Virus record (IMG/VR): IMGVR_UViG_2690316121_000008
Span: 1 to 31,188 of that record
DNA length: 31,188 nt
From: a virus
Taxonomy: Duplodnaviria > Heunggongvirae > Uroviricota > Caudoviricetes
Reading direction: 5' to 3' (one strand)
The notes under the pieces are model-generated. The model did not search any database and had not been told where the DNA came from. It was given only the letters and a program-made list of their open reading frames with translations. A program made the position numbers and the translations under genes. Positions 13,557 through 14,307 of the stretch are shown in pieces (position 1 is the first letter of the stretch; every line of letters begins with the position of its first letter).

Positions 13557-13589
13557 CTGGACATGAGTTATACGACTTGACAGTGCTGA

Positions 13590-13671
13590 GTTTTCGTGGG
13601 GAGAGAAAATTCCCTTATCCATCCCTACTTTGTGACGGACGCAGGTCGCAGGCTCAGCACTGTTTTTTTAC
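13590..13671 (+). terminator. Long stem structure (11-bp stem ACAGTGCTGAG/CTCAGCACTGT, ~53-nt loop) followed by T7; putative terminator or processing structure after the tRNA cluster
   Basis: Inverted repeat and T-run read directly; a second 12-bp inverted repeat (AGATGGTGCGTT / AACGCACCATCT) follows at 13679-13755. Confidence 0.4.
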
Positions 13672-14150
13672 ACCATTCAGATGGTGCGTTGTCTGCTCTT
13701 GGTCGGAGATACAGGGTACGTAGCGCGCAGGCCTGAGACTGATAACGCACCATCTCAATGTTGTTAACTTTATTACAGAGCTGTTCCTCAGTATGAGAAT
13801 AGTTTAGCGGGAAACCACATTATCTGATTTAACATCAGATGGCCCGGAAGGTACCCGACATCTCAAAAATAATATATGTCATCTTATCCATTCAACCATC
13901 ATATAAGGCGGTCTTTTTTATTCCCTTAAATTCCTGTTTAAGAGAGTAAACCCGTGAAGCGTAATGTGTTGCTAGATATGGTGTGTTGGTGACTTGCAGG
14001 GCGTAGGCGTGTACTTCCATTGGTGCCGTGGATAACGAAATCTGAAATTACATGTTTTCAATTGCAAAATGCACACCAGGAAACCAGGCTGACTAACGCA
14101 AAGGTAACACCGCTATCATTGGTATCTATTTGGAATCATTTTCTTCTATT

Positions 14151-14178
14151 GCCAGCCCCCAACGCTGGCTTTTTTTTT
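14151..14178 (+). terminator. Strong rho-independent terminator ~130 bp upstream of the holin gene
   Basis: GCCAGC-CCCCAAC-GCTGGC hairpin followed by nine T. Confidence 0.6.
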
Positions 14179-14307
14179 GCTTTCCTGTTGACCTCTTTAT
14201 CCGTATTACTCCCGGCATACATATTAATCATTCTTTATAAGAATTCGTCTCTAAAGACCATTTTATACAAATTAACTACGCCATCCGTGATTTGCGGAGG
14301 TGAGGCT

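Follow-up and report, generated by a model that had tools for sequence, protein, structure and literature searches.

The lambdoid prophage sequence examined here (IMG/VR record IMGVR_UViG_2690316121_000008, Caudoviricetes; the window is its whole 31,188-nt stretch) contains a 751-bp unannotated slot, positions 13557-14307, between the last of four tRNA genes and the holin gene. Comparison with related loci, which are numbered with the prefix L, indicates that this is probably an accessory non-coding slot of the lambdoid late region, in which a tRNA-linked block of RNA elements is followed by the relic of a cargo gene. The block comprises three elements on the + strand, termed E1, E2 and E3. 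E1 and E2 are structured elements that are conserved at the RNA level, while E3 is a damaged relative of the STnc100/PasD small RNAs (sRNAs), and the cargo gene downstream of it is also damaged. An initial annotation of the sequence had proposed that the slot holds either structured non-coding RNA or a vacant insertion site. The first proposal applies to the proximal half, where compensatory changes support E1 and E2 and where E3 had not been seen. The second does not describe the distal half, which aligns as a cargo relic with a 411-bp deletion and a retained 3' module and terminator, but it agrees with the presence of cargo at this position in relatives. A seemingly empty stretch would thus be a row of exchangeable RNA modules.

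Structured RNA elements downstream of tRNA-Gly

E1 (13580-13670) is a multi-branch RNA in which a closing helix (13580-13590 paired with 13653-13663) surrounds inner hairpins and is followed by a U-run at 13663-13669. The arms of this helix are 11 nt long and 100% complementary, which shows that the first inverted repeat proposed in the initial annotation is real and was placed nearly correctly (13590-13664), and the run of seven T residues that it described is also present. The predicted fold of the + strand has a free energy of -41.8 kcal/mol (z = -4.4), a value reached by none of 200 shuffled sequences. There are 23 nt between the end of tRNA-Gly at 13556 and the start of the E1 helix at 13580, and the same layout is found in 16 relatives. 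Across this family, the closing helix encloses two or three hairpins and leads directly into six to eight T residues.

To compare these elements, 17 blocks were aligned from the end of tRNA-Gly: those of the window, L002, L003, the two copies in phage SerU, phage 683R6 and 11 further chromosomal loci. A MAFFT alignment of 14 E1 sequences (A4) was interpreted by RNAalifold as 19 pairs in four helices, with standard pairs in 93.8% of alignment cells and changes on both sides of 11 of the 19 pairs. The pairing and covariation scores were reached by none of 500 shuffled alignments, and controls in which the partner was slid along the alignment paired in 32-54% of cells. In the window and L002, two adjacent positions of the closing helix differ from all other sequences, and each change is matched by one in the pairing partner (C-G to U-A and A-U to G-C). 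A covariance model of E1 (R3) matched the + strand only, and no Rfam family matched E1 in the window, L003, L125, L126 or L127.

E2 (13670-13764) is a long hairpin of approximately 26+4 bp whose tip varies and which is not followed by a U-run. Its arms (13667-13693 and 13741-13767) are 27 nt long and 85% complementary, so the second inverted repeat of the initial annotation (13679-13755) is likewise genuine and close to its proposed position. The + strand folds with -40.2 kcal/mol (z = -4.4; 0/200 shuffles as good). An alignment of 15 sequences (A3) contains 30 pairs, of which 12 show changes on both sides, and 92.9% of cells pair; these values were reached by 0/500 shuffles, and slid controls paired in 33-59% of cells. 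By our own count, 87 of the 450 cells in the pair table are G.U. The E2 covariance model (R2) gave the + strand much higher scores than the - strand at all loci, with 58.2 versus 41.9 bits in the window, 89.1 versus 37.5 bits in L133 and 59.1 versus 17.9 bits in L128. Because of this G.U content and strand asymmetry, the structure of E2 appears to be selected in RNA of the + strand, on which the tRNA genes and the late operon also lie. E2 matched no Rfam family, and its relatives gave only chance matches to microRNA precursor models.

In all copies, including those on plasmids, E2 lies directly 5' of whichever body is present, be it E3 or a replacement. Two apparent links between E2 and tRNAs were dropped as too short to be told from chance: a GCACCA in its 3' arm that resembles a tRNA 3' end, and the complementarity (inverted repeat I16) of 13678-13687 in its 5' arm (CAGATGGTGC) to the 3' end of tRNA-Thr and the bases that follow it (13473-13482, GCACCATATG).

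A degenerate STnc100/PasD relative and a cargo-gene relic

STnc100 and PasD1/PasD2 are prophage-encoded, Hfq-associated sRNAs. E3 (13774-13928), the segment that is shared with IncF plasmids, is by its sequence a member of a tRNA-Gly-linked subfamily of this lineage, albeit a poor one in the window. A covariance model (R1) built from 11 intact tRNA-Gly-linked copies, with the window excluded, matched the E3 of the window with 77.1 bits (E 1.3e-14, where E-values from all models built in this analysis are rough), compared with 132-184 bits for intact copies that were likewise left out of the model. The Rfam STnc100 model (RF02076) gave full-length matches to E3 relatives that all fall below its gathering score of 47: 35.5 bits in L003 (E 4e-6 in a 601-base search), 30.2 bits in L127, 22.9 bits in L126 and 21.7 bits in L125. 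The window E3 did not match at E <= 1 in a search of 2401 bases or at E <= 10 in a search of 211 bases. The PasD1 and PasD2 loci of enteropathogenic Escherichia coli (EPEC) E2348/69, located from coordinates in the supplement of PMC8550237, scored comparably to the E3 relatives with RF02076 (37.7 and 41.4 bits, respectively, again below the gathering score) and matched R1 weakly (15.6 and 18.4 bits, respectively).

When the relatives were aligned to RF02076, the STnc100 consensus and E3 were found to share a closing helix, a first C-rich hairpin and the 12-mer GGGAGGCACCCG, followed by a linker and a terminator. In order, the common architecture consists of the closing helix, the first hairpin, a second one with CGGG-AGGCA-CCCG, a linker rich in A and U, and an intrinsic terminator. 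The genomic position is also the same, as E3 lies on the late strand between Q (12512-12883) and the holin gene (14308-14523). PasD and STnc100 have been reported to share an ancestor, with PasD located within 10 kb of a Q gene and beside the holin/lysozyme operon (bioRxiv 10.64898/2026.05.13.724894). STnc100 is reported to lie 75 nt downstream of stx2 in Stx2 phages (PMC12370729). Despite these similarities, all copies of the E3 subfamily remain below the STnc100 gathering score, the linker of E3 is unrelated to that of PasD, where PasD has its seed, and the E3 subfamily is preceded by tRNA-Gly, E1 and E2, which are absent from the PasD loci. PasA was also considered, but this sRNA is encoded on the minus strand 5' of the holin gene in EPEC and has no counterpart in the window, where the hairpin at 14151-14178 has a U-run on the + strand only.

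The E3 copy in the window is probably a decaying gene. Its core sequence CGGGAGGCACCCG is changed to CGGAAGGTACCCG, one pair is broken in each of two helices, and its terminator (13897-13925), which in this lineage is also the presumed Hfq site, is crippled by a change of ACCGCC to ACCATC and by a C that interrupts the U-run. The terminator hairpin has a predicted energy of -2.8 kcal/mol in the window (z -0.5, no better than shuffles), compared with -13.2 kcal/mol in L135 and -11.7 kcal/mol in L002. L002 has the reverse defect, where the E3 terminator is intact and the body (13768-13848 in window coordinates) is deleted. In L140-L143, an unrelated segment of approximately 80 nt takes the place of the E3 body before the same terminator (L140 1714-1804, L141 1715-1799, L142 1615-1701 and L143 1606-1699), and in these loci the body appears to have been swapped on a fixed frame of E2 plus terminator.

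The block is widespread. A 400-bp query covering E1-E3 of the 683R6 copy matched 574 places in 435 of 5426 complete E. coli genomes, mostly at 80-90% identity, with 220 matches over at least 80% of the query. The block follows tRNA-Gly in 16 of the 16 aligned chromosomal or phage copies, and the phage records that contain it, reached with the plasmid copy as query, are those of the LT-IIb prophage SerU (two copies) and vB_EcoS-683R6. A query with the plasmid form (L003) matched 141 E. coli and Escherichia fergusonii plasmids, and the window itself matched approximately 30 IncF plasmids of enterotoxigenic E. coli and livestock strains over 13747-13921 at approximately 70% identity. This plasmid match is part of a larger phage-derived fragment with a tRNA-Gly-like gene, diverged copies of both repeats, the matched segment with an intact terminator, and a DMT transporter gene. 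On pE21845IncF (L003 3738-4230) and approximately 75 further plasmids, the tRNA-Gly-like gene (annotated as tRNA-OTHER), E1, E2 and E3 stand directly 5' of the DMT-family transporter gene and are flanked by insertion sequence remnants. In phage SerU-LTIIb (L125), the block of tRNA-Gly, E1, E2 and E3 occurs twice (1201-2031 and 3107-3743), each time before a holin gene, and the LT-IIb toxin genes are located after the endolysin gene and not in the Q-holin slot. Two motif scans were uninformative: a 15-base motif returned 119 stretches of viral contigs, all by chance except L098 (the same as L002), and a 21-base window-type motif returned two chance matches in unrelated metagenome-assembled genomes, which say nothing about other genera.

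Downstream of E3, the distal half of the slot (13949-14178) reads in alignment as what is left of a cargo gene after an internal deletion, with its 3' module and terminator retained. Three E. coli chromosomes (e.g. 2015C-4136CT1, L002) share 13558-13767 with the window at 89% identity and then carry a 164-aa open reading frame (ORF) and approximately 3 kb of cargo before the holin gene. Window positions 13849-13976 align with L002 4219-4346 and positions 13978-14227 with L002 4758-5009, so that 411 bp of the L002 ORF (4327-4821) are missing at the joint 13976/13977 in this pairwise alignment. The relic (13949-14045) retains only the start region (13954-13976), where the start of the L002 ORF, ATGCGTAATGTG, reads AAGCGTAATGTG and the ATG is AAG, and the last codons (...GAVDNEI) before a TGA stop at 14043-14045; no intact cargo ORF was found in the slot. 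The 164-aa protein of L002 matched no Pfam family and is encoded there together with Rha and a family 9 glycosyltransferase. Other relatives carry TerB and DUF3927 proteins (L137, L138 and L141), YagU (L144) or, on plasmids, the DMT transporter at the slot. The comparison with related prophages that the initial annotation had suggested thus revealed unrelated cargo in L002, L137, L138, L141 and L144 and identifies the slot as an exchange point. It resembles the cargo (moron) slot of Shiga toxin and other lambdoid phages, which is also 3' of Q and tRNA genes, but differs in that the window has a relic in place of an intact cargo gene. Gene-free stretches of approximately 680-780 bp between tRNA-Gly and the holin gene are also present in L133, L134, L136, L139, L126 and L143.

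The 3' module of the lost gene, E4 (14029-14178), ends in an intact intrinsic terminator (14151-14178), which is the last before the holin gene. This terminator, described as strong in the initial annotation, is present: its stem (14151-14169) has six pairs, five of them G-C, followed by nine T residues, and the hairpin has an energy of -10.6 kcal/mol (z = -3.7). Units of approximately 150 nt that are 72-89% identical to E4 occur in other prophages without the ORF (L144 2501-2648 and L145 2501-2648), and in L145 the unit starts 50 nt after a tRNA-Lys gene. Judging from these copies, E4 may be a sRNA module that is either derived from a 3' untranslated region or stand-alone. No covariation was seen among the four sequences available, and E4 was therefore set aside as a structured RNA.

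Transcription of the slot and competing explanations

Between Q and the holin gene, the + strand contains three intact terminators (12960-12986, the E1 helix with its U-run, and 14151-14178) and the crippled one of E3 (13897-13925), which is consistent with the earlier suggestion that late transcripts must pass at least two terminators. The raw number of terminator-like sites does not exceed chance expectation (3 versus 2.2 expected), and the terminators and repeats are judged to be real because they are conserved in related loci. The first lies at the position of tR', 77 nt 3' of Q, with a hairpin of -13.4 kcal/mol and a U-run; both this site and 14151-14178 have the short G+C-rich hairpin, loop of 3-8 nt and U-run of an intrinsic terminator. 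E1 is only partially of this kind, as it has the helix and U-run but encloses approximately 62 nt and was not listed by the terminator scan. A promoter-like site, TTGAAA-16-TATTAT (13187-13214), precedes the tRNA genes, and a similar one (TTGCGA-16-TATTAT) is found 5' of the tRNAs in L133. The scans located neither a late promoter after Q nor a promoter for E3, and in the window, L133 and L003 they gave nothing between E2 and E3.

In the model that we favor, transcription of the four tRNAs in the lysogen would start from the promoter-like site at 13187-13214, and this unit would feed E1-E3. E1 would be the 3' trailer of the tRNA operon, with its closing helix and U-run acting as an atypical intrinsic terminator that is probably leaky, because the helix encloses so many bases. 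Transcripts that read through would proceed into E2, a long perfect-to-wobble duplex that is a putative processing or stability element and perhaps an RNase III site, and then into E3, which would normally end at its own terminator, giving a layout in which a sRNA lies between two terminators. As the E3 terminator is lost in the window, 14151-14178 would be the last barrier that keeps constitutive transcription from the tRNA promoter out of the holin gene. We propose that shielding the lethal holin gene from constitutive tRNA-operon transcription is the reason that terminators are kept in a decayed slot. After induction, Q-modified polymerase from the late promoter would pass 12960-12986, E1 and 14151-14178 and allow expression of the lysis genes. 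Read-through by Q-modified polymerase is an established lambdoid mechanism, and it is from lambdoid biology that we infer the Q dependence of late expression here, as the initial annotation had done.

Two known systems offer partial parallels. 3'ETS-leuZ is a sRNA sponge that is released from the precursor of the glyW-cysT-leuZ tRNA operon. E1 has the layout of such a tRNA-operon trailer, being positioned right after the last tRNA and ending in a hairpin and U-run, and it would similarly be released by tRNA 3' processing. However, E1 is approximately twice as long as 3'ETS-leuZ, is multi-branched, has no sequence similarity to it and also has relatives away from tRNAs. 3'ETS-leuZ is listed as a transcript in the EPEC supplementary tables of PMC8550237. 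For a sRNA that lies between dual terminators and arises by read-through, rRNA operons provide a precedent (PMC8144298); the similarity is one of layout, by analogy and without homology, and read-through at E1-E3 is what the model predicts.

Several points weigh against this model. The window's own E1 and E2 were included in the training alignments of R3 and R2, and the 14-15 aligned sequences are kin by descent, so one inherited change may be counted several times. The approximately 62 nt enclosed by the E1 helix are unusual for an intrinsic terminator. E1-like copies are present on two IncF plasmids several hundred bases 3' of E3 and away from tRNAs (L128 3224-3318 and L130 2989-3083), where they score 43.5 and 44.8 bits, respectively, with R3, and a GTGACT-18-TAATTT sequence was noticed by eye just 5' of the L128 copy; given these tRNA-free copies, E1 could in some settings be a sRNA gene in its own right. 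The 13-nt gap in the window E3 also occurs in L135, and is therefore a variant that does not necessarily reflect decay. PasD is strongly expressed in EPEC, yet the loci examined there have no annotated tRNA genes, and therefore the lineage can have its own promoter; E3 may have one that was missed. Finally, promoter use, start sites, 3' ends, E1 leakiness, E2 processing, the trans role of E1 or E3 and Q dependence are all read from sequence and analogy.

The abundance of PasD1 and PasD2 in EPEC is also an argument for the most serious alternative, in which E2 and E3 together, or only E3, would be a sRNA gene transcribed from a promoter of its own, E1 would be a further sRNA gene, and the link to the tRNAs would be positional only. 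We regard this as possible, but clearly less probable than a tRNA-linked block. It would fit the free-standing E1-like plasmid copies, one with GTGACT-18-TAATTT upstream, the constant association of E2 with E3 or a replacement body, and the TGnTAnnnT-like sequences that can be seen by eye just after E2 in L003, L138 and the window. However, this candidate -10 sequence is not conserved in most phage-type variants, inspection of the 17-block alignment by eye revealed no conserved TAnnnT hexamer between E2 and E3, and the promoter scans reported nothing between E2 and E3 in the window, L133 or L003. It is unlikely that the whole slot is functionless debris, a vacated cargo site whose repeats and terminators are kept by recent common descent. 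The distal half is truly a deletion relic, E3 is damaged in the window, L002 lacks the E3 body and the exact sequence of the slot is present in only two genomes, yet pairing is maintained by changes on both sides of 11 of 19 pairs in E1 and 12 of 30 pairs in E2 among copies that are only approximately 65-90% identical, and the block, which 8% of complete E. coli genomes contain, has spread to plasmids without losing its structure.

Other explanations address individual elements. E1 and E2 could function as DNA, either as palindromic boundaries at which recombination exchanges cargo modules or as sites bound by proteins, and it is true that joints occur directly after E2, both in the L002 deletion and with the alternative bodies of L140-L143. 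Nevertheless, approximately one fifth of the paired cells are, by our count, G.U pairs that in a cruciform or on the opposite strand would become A.C mismatches, and the models score the + strand well above the - strand, which makes a role as DNA improbable. More remote still is the idea that the array once had a fifth tRNA gene, of which E1 is the decayed form, which is prompted by its 7-bp closing helix and inner hairpins directly after four tRNAs and by a 13/15 match to the T-arm region of the first tRNA (direct repeat D10). However, ARAGORN calls no tRNAs other than the four at 13247-13556, the Rfam tRNA model does not match E1 in the window, L003, L125, L126 or L127, the core of 84-105 nt has no linker bases after the closing helix and no T-loop motif, and a U-run stands where the CCA or discriminator would be. 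Least plausible of all is a small protein overlooked by annotation. RefSeq or GenBank hypothetical proteins do cover the block in L135 (1687-2100), L140 (1613-1924) and, on the minus strand, L126, but these annotations disagree in strand, frame and position, no ORF is conserved among the 17 homologues, and the ORFs of the window are short, mostly non-ATG or overlap a tRNA gene.

Within the tRNA-linked, non-coding interpretation that we prefer, the novelty differs between elements. For E3, both the family and the position have already been described; on sequence grounds, the copy in the window is new but defective and belongs to a divergent STnc100/PasD branch with a physical linkage to phage tRNA genes. 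Annotation and Rfam overlook the conserved structures E1 and E2, which are modestly new, being of known general kinds (tRNA trailer and processing hairpin), and a full-text literature search for core sequences of E1, E2 and E3 found no papers. A bolder and distinctly speculative view is that E1 and E2 represent two undescribed classes of phage-borne regulatory RNA, carried with tRNA-Gly in approximately 8% of E. coli and copied to virulence-type IncF plasmids, in which E1 would be a trans-acting RNA of approximately 100 nt and E2 a processing switch for swappable sRNA bodies. If so, E1 would be stable, cut from the tRNA precursor and active in trans as a sponge or a ligand of Hfq or ProQ, and E2 would be a double-stranded switch through which read-through transcripts mature into the downstream sRNA or late mRNA is stabilized. 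Since the body behind E2 is exchangeable, E2 and the shared terminator would then be a fixed chassis for swapped sRNA seeds. Through prophage sRNAs in the Q-holin slot, phage cargo is connected with host regulation in pathogenic E. coli. For the window itself the message is modest, as its sRNA copy is probably defective and its cargo gene is dead.

Coding content and flanking genes

Over positions 13557-14307, the chromosomes of E. coli JNE23-011 and JNE112863 match the window at 100% identity, and they are the only two genomes with this exact sequence. In the lambdoid prophage of JNE23-011, the annotated order is Q antiterminator, four tRNA genes, a 751-bp unannotated gap, holin essD, a YdfR-family pseudogene, lysozyme, terminase and head genes. 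The slot boundaries given in the initial annotation are exact, with tRNA-Gly ending at 13556 and the holin ATG at 14308, and its statement that no credible ORF lies between them agrees with RefSeq, which annotates nothing in the identical stretch of JNE23-011. The ORFs listed for the slot encode 25-75 aa and mostly have GTG or TTG starts or begin within a tRNA gene. No ORF keeps its position, frame or strand across the 17 homologous blocks, and the conserved small protein gene that would have spoken against the initial annotation was not found.

The covariance-model search that had been proposed for the inverted repeats yielded no Rfam match in 13557-14088. With the Rfam 15 models at E <= 1, the sole match in 13557-14307 was a weak one to GadY (14089-14182), which was taken as chance (20.1 bits against a gathering score of 45, E 0.67), and there was no match to AgvB (RF02702), AsxR (RF02703) or Esr41 (RF02676). 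Further Rfam matches in the window were the four tRNAs and chance matches on their opposite strand.

The Q gene (12512-12883, + strand) was identified by PF06530 (E 3.7e-51), and the four tRNA genes (13247-13556, + strand) by ARAGORN and Rfam. The gene at 13247-13322 is called tRNA-Met (anticodon CAT) by ARAGORN, and RefSeq names the identical gene tRNA-Ile; with lysidine modification of a CAT anticodon, tRNA-Ile is the usual reading. The first lysis gene (14308-14523, + strand; essD in RefSeq) encodes a P21-type holin (PF04971, E 6.7e-34). Its leader (14179-14307) contains a ribosome-binding site, GGAGGTGAGG, at 14296-14305, and the promoter scan found no promoter-like site in it. The last 34-45 bases of this leader are 91-97% identical 5' of holin genes in other phages and E. 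coli genomes, and a search of the phage collection with the slot matched only the 34 bases just 5' of the holin gene. The ORF that follows the holin gene (14528-15079, 183 aa) matches DUF1327 over its first 112 residues only and is treated by RefSeq as a YdfR-family pseudogene that lacks its C-terminus. Together with a minus-strand ORF at 15027-15410, it interrupts the lysis cassette between holin and lysozyme.

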